Program-made: the position numbers and the translations under genes | Shown here: in pieces, positions 4,451 to 38,143 of the stretch | Layout of the letters: each line of letters opens with the position of its first letter | Numbering within the stretch: position 1 is the stretch's first letter | Notes under the pieces: generated by a model | The model's input: the letters and a program-made list of their open reading frames with translations, nothing else | Databases searched by the model: none | What the model was told of the DNA's origin: nothing | From: an uncultured Gemmatimonadales bacterium | GTDB taxonomy: Bacteria; Gemmatimonadota; Gemmatimonadetes; Gemmatimonadales; GWC2-71-9 | Length of the DNA stretch: 64,000 nt | Assembly: GCA_963842945.1 (NCBI GenBank) | Contig: CAWJIM010000019.1 | Coordinates: forward strand, 416,001-480,000 | Direction: 5' to 3'

Positions 4451-4603
4451 CACCACGGAGGCACGGAGGACACGGAGGCCGCACGGACCGGATGGTGTAG
4501 TCCGCAGACCCTAACAGTTTCTAACTGTTGTTCCCCACCGCCCAACCAAAGTCATTGTTCGAGATGACCTTGCAACCTCCGTGTCCTCCGTGCCTCCGTG
4601 GTG
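4451..4603. repeat. Perfect 28-bp inverted repeat (CACCACGGAGGCACGGAGGACACGGAGG) around a 97-bp non-coding spacer; MITE-like
   Basis: 4451-4478 is the exact reverse complement of 4576-4603; the arms are built of tandem CACGGAGG units. Confidence 0.85.
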
Positions 4604-12403: not shown

Positions 12404-12459
12404 GACTGATGACTAAGGACTCGCCGACTCGGGTCTCGCGACTCGTGACTCGCGACTAC
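12404..12459. repeat. Degenerate heptamer tandem array (GACTCGC/GACTCGT) at the 3' end of DUF4185 copy 2
   Basis: gactgat gactaag gactcgc cgactcg ggtctcg cgactcg tgactcg cgactac; the same 13-mer GACTCGCGACTAC occurs at 1336-1348. Confidence 0.6.
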
Positions 12460-27421: not shown

Positions 27422-29318
27422 CTACCGATAACCCGCTGCTTGCAGCTGGAATAACTCTGAGTACAGGCCACCGAGGCTCAGCAATGCCTCGTGAGTTCCT
27501 TGTTCCACCAGCTCTCCTCCCTTGAGCACCAATATTCGGTCCGCCATTCTCACTGTGGAGAACCGGTGCGAGATGAGCACCGCCATCCTTCCTTTAGTAA
27601 GCTCCGAGAACCGGAGGAACACCTCGTACTCCGCCCGGGCATCCAGCGCCGCCGTCGGCTCGTCCAGGATCAAGAGCTGCGCGTCCCGCATATAAGCCCG
27701 GGCCAGGGCCACTTTCTGCCACTCACCGCCCGAGAGATCCACGCCGCCTTCGAACCGCTTACCCAGCATCTGCTCGAACCCGCCGGTGACCCGCTGGACC
27801 ACCGAATCCGCCAGGCTCCGCTCGGCCGCGCTCCTGATCGCCGGCTGGTCCTCGATTCGGCCGATGTTGCCTACCGCGATGTTTTCCTTCAATAGAAAGT
27901 CGTAGCGAACGAAGTCCTGGAAGATGACGCCGATGTTCCGCCGGAGACTGTCGAGGTCGTAGTCCCGGAGATCGACCCCGTCCAGCAGAATCCGGCCCTC
28001 GTCGGGGTCGTAGAGACGAGCCAGCAGCTTGACCAGCGTAGTCTTGCCCGCCCCGTTCTCCCCCACCAGCGCGATCCGCTCGCCCGGCGCCAGCGAGAAG
28101 TCGAGCCCCCGCACCGCCCACCGCTCCGATCCGGGATACCTGAAGCCCACACCTTCGAAGGCGAAGCCGGTCCGGATCGGGACCGGCACCGGCTTGGCGC
28201 CCGGCTTGAGCCTGATGCTGGGCTCGATCTCCAGAAAGCTGAACAGGTCTTCCAGGTAGAGGCTCTGCTCGAACACCTGGCCAGCGAGAGCAGCACCCGC
28301 TGGATGAGATCGCGGCTCTGGCGAAAGGAGCCCGGCCAGGAAGGTGAGCACTCCGATGGTGAAGACGCCGGCGCGCGATTCGTAACCCGTGACTGTCAGA
28401 TAGATGATGACGGCGTACGCGCCGTAGTAGCCCAGCGTCCCCACCGACGGCCAGCAGCGTGGAGATGAGGCTCCGCCGCACCGCCAGCGCCTTGTTGGCC
28501 TCGTAGAACTCCTGCGACAGCCGGTCGTACCGGCCCACCAGGAAATCGGAGAGCCCGAAGAGCTTGAGCTCCTTGGCCGAGATGTCGCTGGCGCCGATGT
28601 AGCGGAGGTAGTCGAGCGTGCGCCGCTCGGGAGTCCAGCTGTAGAGGAGCGAATAGCCGAGCGAGGCGAAGTGGGTCTCGCCCAGCAGCGAAGGCAGCAC
28701 CGCCACCACCAGCAGCACCAGAAGCCAGGGGACGTACACCGCGAGCGCGACGCTGAGCGAGACCAGGGTGATCAGGTCCTGCAGTGTCGCCAGCAGCATG
28801 GTGAAGAGCCCGATCCGCCCCACGGTCTGCCGCCGGGCCCGCTCCAGCTTATCGTAGATTTCGGCGTTCTCGAACTGCTCCAGGTCGAGCGTCGCCGCAT
28901 GCTGCATCAGCTGAACGCTGGTGCGATTGGCGAAGAGGTCGCCCAGGAGACTCTCCAGCAGCGCCGACATCCGGCTCAGCCCTTCGCCGACCAGGGCGAT
29001 CGCCAGCTCGATCCCGATCAGGAGGCCGAGCCGGGACCAGGGGATTGGCCCGCCGCTGTTGTGCAGGTTGATCGCGTGGACCACCCCGTCCACGATGAGC
29101 TTCCCGATCCAGAGCACCGCGAGCGGCACCGCCGAGCGGGCGACGCGGAGCAGAAGAATACCGACCACGTAGCGGGGCTCGGTCTCCCACACCATGCGAA
29201 GCAGCTTGGGCAGGTGCCTGAGGGCCTGGAACCGCTCCCGCCAGCCGACGTCGGGGGCGAGCGCGGGCCGGCCTCGGCCGTTTCCTCTTATAACGGGGTG
29301 TCGGAGAGGGAGGGACAT
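27422..29318 (-). CDS. ABC transporter ATP-binding/permease (exporter type), frameshifts at 28280-28450
   Basis: N-terminal TM domain; GENGAGKTT, LSGGEWQK, LILDEPT, ISHR. Confidence 0.92.
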
Positions 29319-29326
29319 GCTATAAA

Positions 29327-29386
29327 GGTAAGCGGTGAGCGGTGAGCGGTAAGGCGGTAAGGCGGTAAGGCGGCAAGGCGATGAGC
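29327..29386. repeat. Mixed heptamer/octamer tandem array (GCGGTGA, GGCGGTAA)
   Basis: ggtaagcggtgagcggtgagcggtaaggcggtaaggcggtaaggcggcaaggcgatgagc; same octamer as 32032-32144. Confidence 0.8.
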
Positions 29387-29449
29387 CTCTAGCCGAGCGC
29401 CGGTACCCGATTAGAATCTCGGCGACCCTCATACCATCCTGGAGACTCC

Positions 29450-30173
29450 ATGGCAGTGAGCGCAGCGGCGGTACGGACCGGAAGGCGGACTCGGCGCTTC
29501 TACGTCGGGATGGCGCTAGCCATGGCCATCACCGTATTCGCTGGATTCTCCCGCAGCTACTTCCTCAAGGGCTGGTACGGCACGCCGGAGCTGAGCCGCC
29601 TGCTCCACCTGCACGGGCTGGTGTTCACCACCTGGGTGCTGTTCTTCCTGTCCCAGACCGCTCTGGTCGCGAGCGGCAGGACCTACCTCCACCGGCGGAT
29701 GGGAATCGCCGGCGCGGTGCTGGCCGTGCTGGTGCTGATCGTGGGAACGACGGTCGCGATCATGCGGGTCAAGAGCGGGAGGGCGTCGCCCATTCCGGGC
29801 GTTTCCCCGCTCGCCTTCCTGGCGATCCCGCTCTTCGACATGGTGGTATTCGCGATTCTGGTGGGTACCGCGCTCTACTTCCGCCGCCGGCTCGAGGCGC
29901 ACAAGCGGCTGATGACGCTCTCGATGATCTCGCTCCTGGCTGCCCCGATCGCGCGGATCGAGCTTCCTGCCCCTGCCGCCCGGTCCGCCGACGTTCTTCG
30001 GCCTGGCCGACCTCTTCATCGGAGCGCTGCTGATCTACGACCTCGTCACCCGCCGGAAGATTCATCCCGCCACGATCTGGGGCGGGCTTCTCATCGTGGC
30101 CTCGCAGCCGCTCCGGCTGGTGATTGCGGGGACGCCGGCGTGGATGGCCTTTGCAGGGTGGATGACGCGGTAA
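29450..30173 (+). CDS. Conserved membrane protein (about 7 TM), frameshift near 29970
   Basis: SD GGAGA; FAGFSRSYF, LHLHG, HRRMG, HKRLM, RRKIHPATIWGG. Confidence 0.75.
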
Positions 30174-30175
30174 TA

Positions 30176-30233
30176 AAGCGGTGAGCGCTCACCGCTTACC
30201 TAGTTGTCCCCCGCTCACCGCTCACGCTTTACC
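30176..30233. repeat. Perfect 22-bp palindrome AAGCGGTGAGCGCTCACCGCTT plus a CCGCTCA heptamer array between convergent genes
   Basis: 30176-30197 is self-complementary; the units are the reverse complement of the 29327 array units. Confidence 0.75.
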
Positions 30234-31949
30234 ATCCAGCCACGCTTCGATATGCGATCGAAGAAACGAGAGCGGGACACTGCCGCTCTCGAGGACCCGG
30301 TCGTGGAACTCGCGGATGTCGAACTTGTCTCCCAGCCGAGCCTGCGCCTCGTCGCGCAGCCGCTCGATCTCCAGCCGCCCGATCATGTACGCCGTGGCCT
30401 GGCCCGGATTGGCGATGTAGCGGTCCACCTCCGACTCCACCGCGGCCCGGGAATTCGGCACATGCGCCATCATGTAGTCGATCGCCTGCTGGCGCGACCA
30501 GCCCAGCACCGCGAGGCCGGGGTCCACCACCAGCCGGGCGGCACGCAGGGCCTGCTGGCCCAGCTCGCCGAAGCGATCGAGGTCGCTCGAGTACAAGCCC
30601 ATCTCTCCCGCCATCCGCTCCGCATACAGTCCCCAGCCCTCGGTGAACCCGGAGAAGACGAGGTAGCGGGTGATGGGATGCGCGTTCCCCCGCTCCTGCG
30701 CCAGCGCGATCTGCAGGTGATGGCCCGGAATCGTTTCGTGGAAGGCGATGCCCTCGAGCGGCGCCCGGGGCTGCGGCGGGGTGTTGCGCGCGTTGATCCT
30801 CCAGCGTCCCGGCCGCTTGCCGTCGGGAGTGCCGGGCACATAGGAGTTGGGGCAGCCGCCCTTCTCCTCGAACGCGAGGCATGGATCCACGATCACGTCG
30901 CCTCGGGGAAGCCGGCCGAACCAGCGGGGCATGGCCGCCTTGGCCCGCCCGATCGCCGCCTCGGCCGAGGCGATGATCTGCTCCCGGCTGCCGAAGGTAC
31001 TGTCGGTCCGAAGCCTCTGGTACACGGCAGGCAGATCGGAGCTGCCGTAGCTCCGCTGCGCCAGCGGACGGGCCTCGGCTTCGATCGCCGCCATCTGCTG
31101 AAGCCCCAGCTGGTGGATCGCCCGGGCATCCTTGTCCACCGTGGTGAACTGCCGCACGCTGGCCCGATAGCACTCGGCGCCATTGGGCAGGGCGCTGAGC
31201 GCGGTGCCGGTGCGGGCCTTGGGGATGTACTCGGACACGAGGAAGTCGCGATACCGGGTGGCAGCGGGGATGATCTCCCGGGCGACGATGGCGATCACCG
31301 AGTCCCGGAACCCCGGCGCCGAGTCCCGGTCGGCGAGCCCGGCGAACGGAGACCGCTCGGCCGGAGACTTGAGGACTTCATTCAGCTGCGCGACCACCAT
31401 CTGGGCGTTGGCCTTGGGCTGAGTGTACCCCAGGCGGAGCCCCTCCTTGAGATTGCCGATCTCGGTGTCCACGTAGCGGGCGACGCCGTGCCAGCGGACC
31501 AGTGCCGCAGCCCGGAGCTTCGGGGTGCCGACCGGCTGTAACTGGGCCATGACCGGCAGGTAGATCTGCCAGCCCGCCTGCTGGCTCAGCGGCAGCAGCT
31601 CGCCGCGGCAGATCCGGCTCTGGCGCGAGGCCTCCAGCGTCTCCAGCAAAACACCGTAGGTCGCGTCCTCTGGCCGGCCACTCAGTTCATCGGCCCGAAT
31701 CTCCTTCAGCCGGGAGATCCATCGGTCCTCTTTCTTCTCCCAGGCCCGAAGCGCGGGGAGCGAGTTGTCGTTCATCCGGTCGTTGGGAGCCTCCGGTACG
31801 CCGAGGAAAACGGCGGCGAGCGGAAAGGTCTGTACGAAGGTGCTCCAGTATTCATCGGCCAGAGCATCCACTTTCGAGGGAGCATCACCAGGTGCAGCGC
31901 CGGTGGCCAGCGCAAGGAGGATGAGCGAAACCGAACGCAGATGTGTCAT
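30222..31949 (-). CDS. DUF885 family protein (secreted)
   Basis: FHETIPGHHLQ, FTEGWGLYAE, RAARLVVDPG, EVDRYIANPGQATAYMIG, FDIREFHD. Confidence 0.92.
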   Translation of the reverse strand: MTHLRSVSLILLALATGAAPGDAPSKVDALADEYWSTFVQTFPLAAVFLGVPEAPNDRMNDNSLPALRAWEKKEDRWISRLKEIRADELSGRPEDATYGVLLETLEASRQSRICRGELLPLSQQAGWQIYLPVMAQLQPVGTPKLRAAALVRWHGVARYVDTEIGNLKEGLRLGYTQPKANAQMVVAQLNEVLKSPAERSPFAGLADRDSAPGFRDSVIAIVAREIIPAATRYRDFLVSEYIPKARTGTALSALPNGAECYRASVRQFTTVDKDARAIHQLGLQQMAAIEAEARPLAQRSYGSSDLPAVYQRLRTDSTFGSREQIIASAEAAIGRAKAAMPRWFGRLPRGDVIVDPCLAFEEKGGCPNSYVPGTPDGKRPGRWRINARNTPPQPRAPLEGIAFHETIPGHHLQIALAQERGNAHPITRYLVFSGFTEGWGLYAERMAGEMGLYSSDLDRFGELGQQALRAARLVVDPGLAVLGWSRQQAIDYMMAHVPNSRAAVESEVDRYIANPGQATAYMIGRLEIERLRDEAQARLGDKFDIREFHDRVLESGSVPLSFLRSHIEAWLDGKA

Positions 31950-32031
31950 ACCTGTAACCCGCTGGACAGAGGAAGAATGAACGGGAACGCTACGCTGAAC
32001 TACGAGGAGTGAGAGATGGAAGTGTCGGACG

Positions 32032-32144
32032 GGCGGTAAGGCGGTAAGGCGGTAAGGCGGTAAGGCGGTAAGGCGGTAAGGCGGTAAGGCGGTAAGGCGG
32101 TAAGGCGGTAAGAGCGGTAAGGCGGTAAGGCGGTAAGGCGGTAA
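32032..32144 (+). repeat. Tandem octamer array (GGCGGTAA) x14, one unit being the 9-nt variant GAGCGGTAA
   Basis: Counted directly from the sequence. Confidence 0.97.
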
Positions 32145-32200
32145 GGGACCGGTAGTTTAATTGATGCTAGTAAGACCTATGGCAGGCGTAATGATTCTGC

Positions 32201-32552
32201 ATGCCACCGTATGAGAGATTCGATGCCTGGAAGATGGCCCATCGACTTGCGCTTCAAGTTTACGAGATCACTAACGGTTGGCCGGCTGCAGGAGCGCTAT
32301 GGACTGACTGCACAACTTCGTCGGGCCGCAATCTCAGTACCGACCAATATTGCTGAAGGGTCGGCTAAGCGCGGATCGCGAGAGCTCAGACGCTACCTTG
32401 ATATAAGCCTTGGCTCCCTGTCTGAGGTCTCCTATCTCCTCAGGTTCGGGCAAGACTGTGGTCTGCTTTCGCCTTCTGACTTCAAGGCTCTGGATGGTTT
32501 GAGAGATGAGGCCGGAAAGCTCACGTGGCGCCTGTATGCAACTGTAAAGTGA
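32201..32552 (+). CDS. Four-helix-bundle protein (23S rRNA IVS / Avd-like family), one extra base near 32284
   Basis: MPPYERFDAWKMAHRLALQVYEITNGWP joined to ERYGLTAQLRRAAISVPTNIAEGSAKRG...YLDISLGSLSEV. Confidence 0.9.
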
Positions 32553-32560
32553 TCCCGACG

Positions 32561-32591
32561 TACCGCCTTACCGCCTTACCGCCTTACCGTC
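32561..32591 (-). repeat. Inverted tandem array (TTACCGCC) x~4, complementary to 32032-32144
   Basis: taccgcc ttaccgcc ttaccgcc ttaccgtc. Confidence 0.93.
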
Positions 32592-32603
32592 TAGTATTCC
32601 CCC

Positions 32604-33317
32604 ATGCCATCCCCTGAAAAAATCGCATACATCACCGGTGCCACCCAGGGCATCGGCCGAGCCACCGCGCTGGCATTGGGGCGCGCCGGCTACGCCGTCG
32701 GGCTGCTCGCCCGGACCGAGTCGGACGTGGATGATCTCGCCAATGAGTTGTCCCGAGAGGGCATAGAAGCTGCCGGTGCGGCCGCCGACGTGGGCAACCC
32801 GGATCAGGCCCAGCGAGCGGTGGACGAGCTGACCCGGGACCTGGGCGACGCCGACGTGCTGGTCAACAACGCCGGGGTGCTCATCGCCAAGCCGTTCGAG
32901 GAACTGACGCTGGAAGAGTGGGACGTCACCATGGGCACCAACGTCCGGAGCCTCTACCTGATGACCCGGGCGGTGCTCCCCGCCATGCGGCGGCGCAAGC
33001 GGGGCGCAATCATCAATGTGGCCAGCCTCGCAGGGCGAAACGGTTTCGTCGGCGGTACCGCTTACACCGCCTCGAAGCACGCGGTCCTCGGATTCAGCCG
33101 CTCCCTCATGCTGGAAACCCGGAAGGAGAACATCCGGGTCATCGCCATCTGCCCCGGCTCGGTCGACACCGGCCTGATCCGGGACCAGTCGATGTTGAAG
33201 TCCGACCCCCTGCGTATCCTCAAACCCGCGGATGTCGCGGAGACCATCGTGCACGCGATCAATCTTCCCGAGCGCGCCCTGGTGAGCGAGCTGGACATCC
33301 GGCCGACGAATCCGTGA
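32604..33317 (+). CDS. SDR family oxidoreductase
   Basis: TGATQGIG, LVNNAG, YTASK. Confidence 0.93.
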   Translation: MPSPEKIAYITGATQGIGRATALALGRAGYAVGLLARTESDVDDLANELSREGIEAAGAAADVGNPDQAQRAVDELTRDLGDADVLVNNAGVLIAKPFEELTLEEWDVTMGTNVRSLYLMTRAVLPAMRRRKRGAIINVASLAGRNGFVGGTAYTASKHAVLGFSRSLMLETRKENIRVIAICPGSVDTGLIRDQSMLKSDPLRILKPADVAETIVHAINLPERALVSELDIRPTNP

Positions 33318-36944: not shown

Positions 36945-36988
36945 GCAGCGGGGCAGCGGGGCGGCGGGGCAGCGGGGCGGCAGGGCAG
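36945..36988 (+). repeat. Tandem octamer array (GCAGCGGG) x5.5
   Basis: gcagcggg gcagcggg gcggcggg gcagcggg gcggcagg gcag; complementary CCCGCTGC units at 37088-37151. Confidence 0.8.
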
Positions 36989-37043
36989 TCACTGAAGGCG
37001 GAGACGAAGCGATCTACTTGAGACCCATTGAAGGAATACACAT

Positions 37044-38143
37044 ATGACGTTCACATCACTGTTCATTCTCGCGGGTCTCCTGTGGAGCTGCCCCGCTGCC
37101 GAGCGGCCCCGCTGCCTCGCTTGAAAGCCCCGCTGCCGAGCGACCCCGCTGTCGCGCCTCCTAAGCTCGTCACCAGCTTGACGACCTACGGCGCCATTGC
37201 GCGAGAGATCGTCGGCGACCGGGGCACGGTGACCTCCATAGCCCAGGGCGACGAGGATCCCCACTTCGTGCAACCGAAGCCCAGCTTCGTGGCGATCCTC
37301 CGCGACGCCGATCTGTTTGTGACCACCGGTATGGATCTCGAGCTCTGGGTGCCGGCGCTGCTGGACCGGGCCGGTAACCGAAAGATCATGGACGGCGGTC
37401 CCGGATATGTAGCAGCATTTCGCGGAATCGATCTGATGGAAGTGCCCACCTCGCTCAGCCGAGCCCAGGGCGACATCCACGTCGATGGCAACCCGCACAT
37501 TCACACCGATCCCGTAAATGGGATCATCATCGCGCGGAACATCCTGGCGGGCCTCCAGCGCGTCTCCCCCGAGAACGGCTCGTACTACGCCGGCCGGGAA
37601 CAGGACTTCGAGAAGCGGGTGCTGGAAGCCACGATCGGCGCCCCACTGGTCGGCATCCTGACTCCCGCGACCGCCTTCGATCTCCTGAAATCGAACAAGC
37701 TCCTCGATTTCCTGGCGCAGCAGAAGTATCAGGGCAAGCCGCTCACTGCGCAGCTCGCAGGCTGGCTCAAGCAGGCCGAGGTTTTCCGGGGCAAGCAGAT
37801 GGCCTGCTACCACAAGGAGTGGGCCTATTTCAGCCGGCGGTATGACATCGAGTGCGTCACCTACATCGAGGCAAAGCCGGGTATCCCGCCGACACCCGGC
37901 CACGTCCAGGAAGTCATTCAGCTGATGCGGGACCGAAAGATTCCCGTGCTCTTCTCCTCGAATTACTTCGACCGTAAGCAGATCGAGCAGGTGGCCGAGC
38001 GCACCGGCGCCAAGGCGGTGATCGTGCCGGAAAACACCCAGGGGGCACCCGGGGTGAATACCTACTTCGACCTGATGAACACCTGGGTCAGTAATCTGGC
38101 TCTCGGGTTCAAGGACGTAGCGCTCACCGCCGGAGCCCGATAA
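37044..38143 (+). CDS. Metal ABC transporter substrate-binding protein (ZnuA/MntC-like); frameshift between signal peptide and mature domain
   Basis: SD AAGGA plus ATG 37044 (MTFTSLFILAGLLWSC); DPHF, GDIHVDGNPHIHTDP, YHKEW, KPGIPPTPGH. Confidence 0.88.

Follow-up and report, generated by a model that had tools for sequence, protein, structure and literature searches.

A small four-helix-bundle gene and the two complementary tandem arrays that enclose it very probably constitute an exchangeable cassette, which, judging from comparison of related sequences, occupies different sites in both orientations in Gemmatimonadales. The copy described here lies in a stretch of 64,000 nucleotides (the window) from an uncultured Gemmatimonadales bacterium, whose genome (G000; 4.3 Mb, completeness 87%, contamination 6%, partly with duplicated stretches) was compared with 102 other genomes of the genus and with a wider sample of phyla. 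Our best full explanation, to which we assign a probability of about 0.5, combines the exchangeable cassette with host recombination at its arms and a pentameric protein that would bind the repeat unit. The coordinates of the features discussed are collected in Table 1.

Table 1. Features of the cassette and its surroundings in the window
Feature	Position	Strand	Basis
Left (G-rich) arm, 14.2 copies of GGCGGTAA with one inserted base	32032..32146	+	tandem repeat finding
AT-rich motif of WWWW-T-G-R-T-W type, ends 23 nt before the -10 position	32156..32166	+	sequence, leader alignment, position profile
Predicted -10 box AATGAT of a leaderless promoter, imperfect (first base not T)	32190..32195	+	inferred from homologue leaders
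Four-helix-bundle gene, PF05635 23S_rRNA_IVP / TIGR02436, about 116 codons, frameshifted near 32288	32201..32552	+	profiles, homologue alignment
Right (C-rich) arm, 3.6 copies of TACCGCCT, complementary to the left arm	32561..32589	+	tandem repeats, pairing, RNA folding
Short-chain dehydrogenase (SDR) gene, PF00106, host neighbour	32604..33317	+	profile match
DUF885 gene, neighbour, divergent from the cassette	30222..31949	-	profile match
Second G-rich array, built of GGTGAGC and GGTAAGGC units, next to where the ABC-transporter gene starts	29327..29380	+	repeat finding, relatives
C-rich partner array, CCGCTCA units	30186..30233	+	repeat finding

The preliminary description had placed the gene in a minimal cassette between two arrays able to pair in several registers, and this geometry was reproduced. 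The last full unit of the left array ends 56 nt before the ATG at 32201, and the right array begins 8 nt past the TGA at 32550-32552. The left array (98% matches) has a TRF score of 221, the maximum of the window, while a degenerate extension of the right arm spans 32555-32592. The arms pair in many registers, over up to 38 nt at 92%, and on RNA folding the MFE and centroid structures alike enclosed the gene in a stem of about 32 bp (z = -2.3 for the whole region), in agreement with the stem of roughly 30 bp first estimated. None of 100 shuffles reached the inverted-repeat score of the locus, which is 61. The low GC content of the gene was likewise confirmed (0.545 versus 0.657 for the contig). 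The searches made agree with the earlier statements on the surroundings: no rRNA (zero Rfam matches in the window), no reverse transcriptase (no PF00078 match in the 87% complete genome) and no transposase or integrase in a scan of 12 ORFs from 24.4 to 38.1 kb. The arms enclose no gene other than the PF05635 member, and the element contains no transposase. A TAGTAT -10-like box (32592-32597) abuts the right arm before the SDR gene.

The second pair of arrays in Table 1 encloses an ordinary 244-codon gene without a Pfam or NCBIfam match. The arms of this element (29327-30233) consist of 7/8-mers, only some relatives have the gene at the same site, and the G-rich array matches the left arm of the ABC/SDR spacer described below for relatives. 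Both the enclosed gene (29450-30184) and the ABC-transporter gene (27422-29320) are frameshifted with respect to relatives, probably by long-read errors.

Profile searches assigned the product of the cassette gene to PF05635 (80.1 bits, cut-off 33.8) and TIGR02436 (77.1 bits, cut-off 24), both curated cut-offs being exceeded as anticipated. The reading frame was not as first described: the ORF starting with ATG 32201 is interrupted by a stop after 51 codons, and its N- and C-terminal parts lie in different frames. Alignment with three intact homologues revealed an extra base near 32288. This frameshift is plausibly an assembly error because at least 7 frameshifts were counted over 9136 aligned residues of this assembly, affecting 6 of 30 gene stretches, which corresponds to about 0.09 per gene of this size; the window copy may also be a pseudogene. 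Two of the seven paralogues in the genome are frameshifted. Reads from eight runs did not reach the frameshift and yielded a single 151-nt contig, over 32311-32461. In the search of read sets, the best share of words was 0.12, and no RNA run was found to cover the gene.

A structure model of the homologue in G076 (84% identical) consists of four helices (pLDDT 95) and aligned with TM scores of 0.90 to Xcc0516 (PDB code 2GSC) and about 0.8 to Avd. A fold search at E <= 0.001 retrieved 2GSC and 2RLD only, followed by Avd, and there was no enzyme among the significant matches. By analogy with Xcc0516 (2GSC as described in PMC4990558), the protein is predicted to form a homopentamer. Among 49 sequences, the polar residues Q38, R41, E52 and E75 are invariant and H14 and N49 nearly so; this consensus was already noted in PMC3936711. 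Within the clade of the window protein, synonymous sites approach saturation, pS being 0.62-0.89 for 20 of 21 pairs, and dN/dS, where defined, amounts to 0.03-0.12. As judged from these codon comparisons, the protein is under purifying selection. Its closest named relatives, among the matches listed, belong to Gemmatimonadales.

The preliminary description had asked whether other members of the family are also flanked by inverted arrays, and for most loci inspected this is the case. All seven family members of the window genome have a G-rich array upstream and a complementary array downstream, and the arms of these paralogues are built from at least five different units. The family was detected in 83 of the 102 other genomes of the genus with 1-10 matches each (the count includes G065). 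From about 340 matches to the Pfam model and the window protein, the best 65 loci were examined, six of them cut by contig ends; arms were found at 55 of the 59 loci with full flanks, each unmatched by 100 shuffles. A search across 185,579 genomes gave 584 confirmed candidates, the best 80 of which included 74 with full flanks, one probably duplicating G105. Arms were present at 51 of these 74 loci and at 44 of the 67 outside Gemmatimonadota, compared with 0 of 136 shifted controls. A family member was also detected in Bacteroides thetaiotaomicron, which served as a control. As best matches, the genus and phylum loci are not a random draw, and kin among them are not independent.

The exact unit of the window was found in none of 19 gene-less genomes, in 6 of 28 with one or two copies of the gene, in 10 of 24 with three or four and in 23 of 30 with 5-10, a trend confounded by kinship. 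A strict dependence of the arrays on the gene, as suggested by the exact unit, was overturned by the broader octamer pattern. Octamer arrays are abundant in five gene-less genomes (227 matches in G118, 198 in G123, 58 in G028 with its completeness of 97%, 28 in G102 and 21 in G014), and thus arrays persist without the protein.

A gene-independent search of the window genome detected 106 inverted-array elements. Ninety of them have loops shorter than 200 nt, 86 with the G-rich arm first and none with the C-rich arm first; loops of 200-300 nt are absent, and the seven loops of 400-600 nt contain this gene (five) or ordinary genes (two). Near-identical array loci on different contigs (C12/C13, C5/C17 and C11/C21) suggest duplicated strain contigs in the bin. 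An arm score typical of the family was reached by only 8 of 3816 called genes, one being a family member; the caller missed the other six paralogues, and this control leans to typical genes. The dispersed arrays fall into the families that also make up the cassette arms, in accordance with the earlier proposal. Their interpretation as remnants of the cassette was weakened, since nucleotide and protein profiles matched the seven known genes only and no gene fragment outside them. The short loops are unique in sequence. The leader motif lies beside 1 of the 86 short hairpins; together with the absence of gene fragments, this gave no support to an origin of the hairpins by plain decay of the gene. 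A non-periodic inner motif of the GGTAYG type is common to the cognate nine-mer cassette and 8 of 11 nine-mer hairpins, compared with 6 of 75 others. With regard to a terminator role of the short hairpins, 64 of them were sorted by context into 13 between convergent, 45 between tandem and 6 between divergent genes, the background numbers being 178, 1024 and 284, respectively; 26 more were set aside as overlapping called genes, and this weak trend was not used.

Ordinary genes lie inside arms in three cases in this genome; besides the 244-codon gene, two of about 140-150 codons are located in G-first arms at C19:238513-239117 and C23:161584-162228. Nuclease genes of the GxxExxY type (PF13366) have arms of the same build, with a distinct 9-mer family of their own, at 8 of 9 loci from four genomes, so that the arm-gene-arm build is not private to the PF05635 protein. 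A gene-less hairpin in the window (4454-4600) has CACGGAGG-type arms around an AT-rich loop, and these arms match those of GxxExxY (PF13366) genes in the window genome and relatives. At 36945-37151, a GCAGCGGG array follows a stop codon and its complement lies inside the 5' coding region of the next gene, a member of the ZnuA family; the ZnuA-internal stretch is longer in G000 than in G068 and G011, and the left arm in G011 has a different unit. A C-rich 7-mer array of GACTCGC units (12417-12457) represents the family flanking another paralogue of the genome. Palindromes of the GTCATCCTGAGC type are nested in array hairpins at L068:3205-3440, L070:4620-5080 and G000 C1:224986-225151; in G015 they lie on both sides of a putative, apparently broken GIY-YIG gene, an arrangement that resembles an Ssn/SRM cassette.

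The insertion site is variably occupied among relatives. Neither the gene nor DUF885 was found within 1.5 kb upstream of 29 SDR orthologues (three of these regions end at contig breaks), and the gene is thus not vertically conserved at this position. In six of the 29, only some 25 bp of bare spacer, with -10-like boxes back to back, separate the SDR gene from a divergent ABC gene, and in several relatives this ABC/SDR spacer contains short hairpins whose units vary. G011, whose SDR is the nearest relative (96%), retains degenerate arms and lacks the gene; G035 and G094 carry an intact cassette with the window's unit directly before the SDR gene, and in G076 the SDR interval is occupied by a family member from another clade. 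As unrelated genes are also taken up, the spacer is a hot spot. Empty orthologous sites, which had been suggested as a sign of mobility, were accordingly observed next to hairpin-bearing and filled ones. No target-site duplication was evident by eye between empty and filled ABC/SDR spacers, the relatives being too diverged for base-exact comparison. Arm length and unit vary among the copies. Labels such as secG and rpsU for the neighbouring sites reflect what we take these genes to be.

Reversal of the cassette was observed between G104 and G120, where the flanks are 85-92% and the cassette 84% identical. It also occurred at two further sites, in 3 of 12 and in 1 of 5 genomes, respectively. 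At all three sites the orientations were compared between genomes and not within one population, and opposite orientations could stem from independent insertions. At the loci of G104 and G120 (L080, L081), the arms have grown to higher-order units of about 15 nt over about 150 nt, and short inner octamers are retained on that side of the flipped gene where its promoter lies.

Twenty pairs have homologous neighbours, and in 19 of them the gene shows a higher pS than every host neighbour measured; host genes saturate at lower pS owing to high GC3. Between G000 and G068, the pS values are 0.77 for the cassette and 0.15-0.22 for the host genes, and identity falls and resumes exactly at the arms. 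The two hosts are sisters; sisterhood of their cassettes is rejected by the AU test (p = 0.007), and a clade formed by the cassettes of G000, G068 and G011 is not (p = 0.19). Replacement of the cassette at this site is the simpler reading of these sequence comparisons, and some of the divergence may be due to an elevated mutation rate within the loop.

A tree was calculated from 63 proteins, leaving out G065 and a multiply frameshifted paralogue and representing the window protein by its C-terminal part. Proteins with 7-mer arms and those with 8/9-mer arms fall mostly into separate clades, and subclades share units. The window clade (12 members, support 95/88) is characterised by (A/C)(A/C)GGCGGT-type arms, with AAGGCGGT or ACGGCGGT as the unit where determined, and it occupies six different sites; its member closest to the window protein, that of G076 (84%), has the same unit at another site. 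Among seven further loci, the units of G105, G021, G076 and G068 fit their own clades and one is degenerate. The remaining two, whose proteins sit on long branches outside the window clade (G069, G082), carry the window unit. In all five genomes selected for a low copy number, the unit of the resident gene is the first or second commonest of six octamers counted. Counts of cognate versus other octamers are 42 versus 0 in G063, 67 versus 39 in G078, 5 versus 8 in G071 and 30 (14 in its own arm) versus 29 in G109; the two counts in G021, 36 and 21, are both cognate. As far as these comparisons go, the unit largely follows the protein tree. This co-variation, together with homology, makes us lean slightly towards a protein that binds its own repeat unit. 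Genome-wide homogenisation of arrays without any recognition could also match the units to the resident genes.

A scan of 31900-32700 for a sigma-70 consensus promoter and a terminator returned nothing, and no full promoter was found. Of 60 homologue leaders, 32 have a TAnnnT box whose end lies 4-8 nt ahead of the ATG, compared with 1-4 for six other intervals, and a Shine-Dalgarno-like word occurs in only 8 of the 60. The WWWW-T-G-R-T-W motif, located about 23 nt further upstream, is a property of the family leaders (31 profiled) and absent from 115 host leaderless genes. From these patterns we infer an internal leaderless promoter inside the cassette, and with such a predicted promoter between the arms the gene's own transcript would not include the G-rich arm. 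A -10-like box, 5-6 nt ahead of the ATG, is frequent among host genes as well (window 32592-32604; L028, L031, L033 and L034).

The element is built in the order G-rich arm, AT-rich motif, gene and C-rich arm. In the mechanism that we propose, its internal leaderless promoter would allow expression at any site and in either orientation. Gene-less hairpins with a matching unit would serve as landing pads. Crossover or conversion in both arms by host enzymes would swap the loop and thereby lead to gain, loss or replacement of the gene, while crossover between the two arms of one element would result in inversion. Such arm-mediated exchange, as suggested by the sequence comparisons, is marginally favoured over its absence. 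In the five-fold ring, each subunit crevice might read a single unit on a strand that is unpaired, either the ssDNA of a hairpin or RNA; reading of this kind, as by Avd with flipped-out bases, would keep unit and protein matched.

The preliminary description also allowed for a system acting at the RNA level. In such a system, the arms would pair in read-through host RNA and RNase III would cut the gene out, as in the 23S rRNA IVS. The predicted stem would suit such an intervening sequence, as would the precedent of Coxiella with its 28-bp stem and RNase III cleavage at the first repeat (PMC4990558). Moreover, a host gene points into most cassettes: a rough gene caller assigned both neighbours at 39 loci, of which only 2 are divergent (3 with G035 corrected), and at 19 the cassette gene is antisense inside an operon. 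However, the copies in the window and in G035 lie between divergent genes, so that a host transcript across both arms of the window copy is unexpected. The promoter predicted inside the arms, with its -10 box shortly before the ATG in about half of the relatives, weakens the idea further, and flips, replacement and spread are unexplained by RNA excision. We regard this account as rather unlikely; it can coexist with an exchangeable cassette and, if true, would mean that insertions are harmless or create processing sites. Retro-mobility, in which the protein would recruit a reverse transcriptase in trans like Avd in DGRs and the cassette would be copied via RNA, draws on the shared Avd fold. 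We consider it very improbable in view of the missing PF00078 match in the 87% complete genome, of reverse transcriptases in only 21 of 102 relatives compared with 83 for the PF05635 family (both counts including G065), and of the Avd profile NF033474, which scored an intact homologue at 20.1 bits (cut-off 80) and did not match the window fragment. The predicted transcript would also be devoid of the left arm and the promoter.

Passive association would imply that host repeats grow by slippage and templated copying, both at hairpins between genes and at AT-rich genes of foreign origin, and are homogenised throughout the genome, the job of the protein being unrelated. Arrays in gene-less genomes, arms around ordinary and GxxExxY genes, short loops without gene remnants, different units of close relatives at one site and an arm inside the ZnuA gene of G000 only are all consistent with this. 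It accounts poorly for the near absence of enclosed ordinary genes (8 of 3816), for paralogues of one genome that keep different units, each common to distant homologues, for the separate 9-mer family of the GxxExxY genes and for an exact window unit present in 0 of 19 gene-less genomes versus 23 of 30 with at least five copies, a comparison confounded by kinship; on balance, it is unlikely. The Ssn and RAYT proteins nick their own repeats. The cassette protein could correspondingly be an enzyme itself, i.e. a cryptic nuclease or strand-transfer protein that nicks the repeat and starts homing of the cassette, in line with its invariant and near-invariant polar residues and with parallel cassettes that carry nuclease-fold genes. 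Against this stand the fold search without an enzyme among its significant matches and the description of Avd as an accessory subunit, and we judge it quite improbable. Exchange of the cassette by host recombination at the arms remains our preferred reading.

The cassette ties a widespread, structure-solved protein family without assigned function to the intergenic 7-9-nt arrays that occur unexplained in many bacteria. A candidate ligand of each PF05635 protein lies beside its gene, and natural specificity pairs are thus provided. If the protein drives the movement, the cassette would be a mobile element that dispenses with transposase, integrase and reverse transcriptase, and it would supply small nucleic-acid binders with sequence specificity. 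In a more far-reaching proposal, which we put forward tentatively and consider doubtful, PF05635 pentamers would be seemingly programmable readers of their own 7-9-nt units that drive transposase-free mobile cassettes and seed, or home into, matching hairpins. Orphan heptamer and octamer arrays such as Xanthomonas GGGAATC would then be explained, and rRNA intervening sequences and the Avd of DGRs would be offshoots.

Among known systems, the S23p intervening sequence (IVS) from Coxiella burnetii contains 2-3 tandem heptamers before its ORF; ORF-bearing 23S rRNA intervening sequences are also cited for Leptospira (PMC4990558). The cassette resembles these elements, which are regarded as selfish (PMC4990558), in protein family, in an ORF within a stem loop of about 30 bp and in upstream tandem heptamers. 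Unlike S23p, which is reported to be decaying and probably unexpressed (PMC4990558), the cassette protein is under purifying selection and has a predicted promoter of its own. The cassette furthermore differs from an rRNA IVS by its location outside rRNA genes (no Rfam match) between DUF885 and SDR, by arms that are both tandem arrays, by several paralogues per genome with their own units, and by many gene-less copies, flips and changes of site.

In REP/RAYT systems, hairpin repeats on either side of a small gene recur at scattered places in the genome. Ssn/SRM is a proven case of a small gene flanked by repeats which its protein binds (PMC11893778). Ssn with its NTS/SRM repeats combines a small single-domain gene with flanking hairpin repeats that are dispersed and homologue-specific (PMC11893778). 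The cassette shares with these systems a gene between repeats that are also scattered through the genome and vary with the homologue, and it would function in the manner of Ssn/SRM. In contrast to both systems, the flanked gene of the cassette matches PF05635 and related models only and has no GIY-YIG or transposase domain, and its 7-9-nt tandem arrays form one large hairpin instead of separate palindromes of 20-50 nt. Binding of the repeats by the cassette protein, in contrast to Ssn, is a prediction from sequence.

Intergenic G-rich arrays of GGGAATC in Xanthomonas and GGGGA(C/T)T in Nostoc lie near stop codons and are rarer between divergent genes (PMC4692102). According to the same source, GGGAATC forms 70 convergent inverted pairs of unexplained function in Xcc, and such repeats are read as G-quadruplex elements at stable loci. 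In its supplementary file 2, repeat 15 is listed immediately upstream of XCC0516, which encodes the protein of structure 2GSC, while 'four helix' and 'xcc0516' have no match in the main text (PMC4692102). In an X. vasicola homologue, we found both arms. The units of Gemmatimonadales differ from these repeats, and many lack runs of three G. In the available text of PMC10053308, PF05635 is linked to Avd only, and the available texts of PMC4679880 (TAACTGA repeats), PMC8700078 and PMC10910872 do not link the family to repeats. A connection of the family with arrays outside rRNA was not found in the open-access literature, subscription journals and supplements being beyond the scope of this search.

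Avd reads bases in crevices between its protomers (10.1101/2023.10.23.563531). With Avd (4DWL, 8UB7), which binds RNA between subunits, the cassette protein shares the four-helix fold, and known relatives form a pentameric barrel; it differs by an identity of only about 10%, by a score below the NCBIfam cut-off and by a genome without a PF00078 reverse transcriptase. By its defining features, the cassette is not an rRNA IVS, a DGR gene, an Ssn or RAYT system or an IS, and its design of a gene with cognate repeats is general and, outside rRNA, apparently undescribed.
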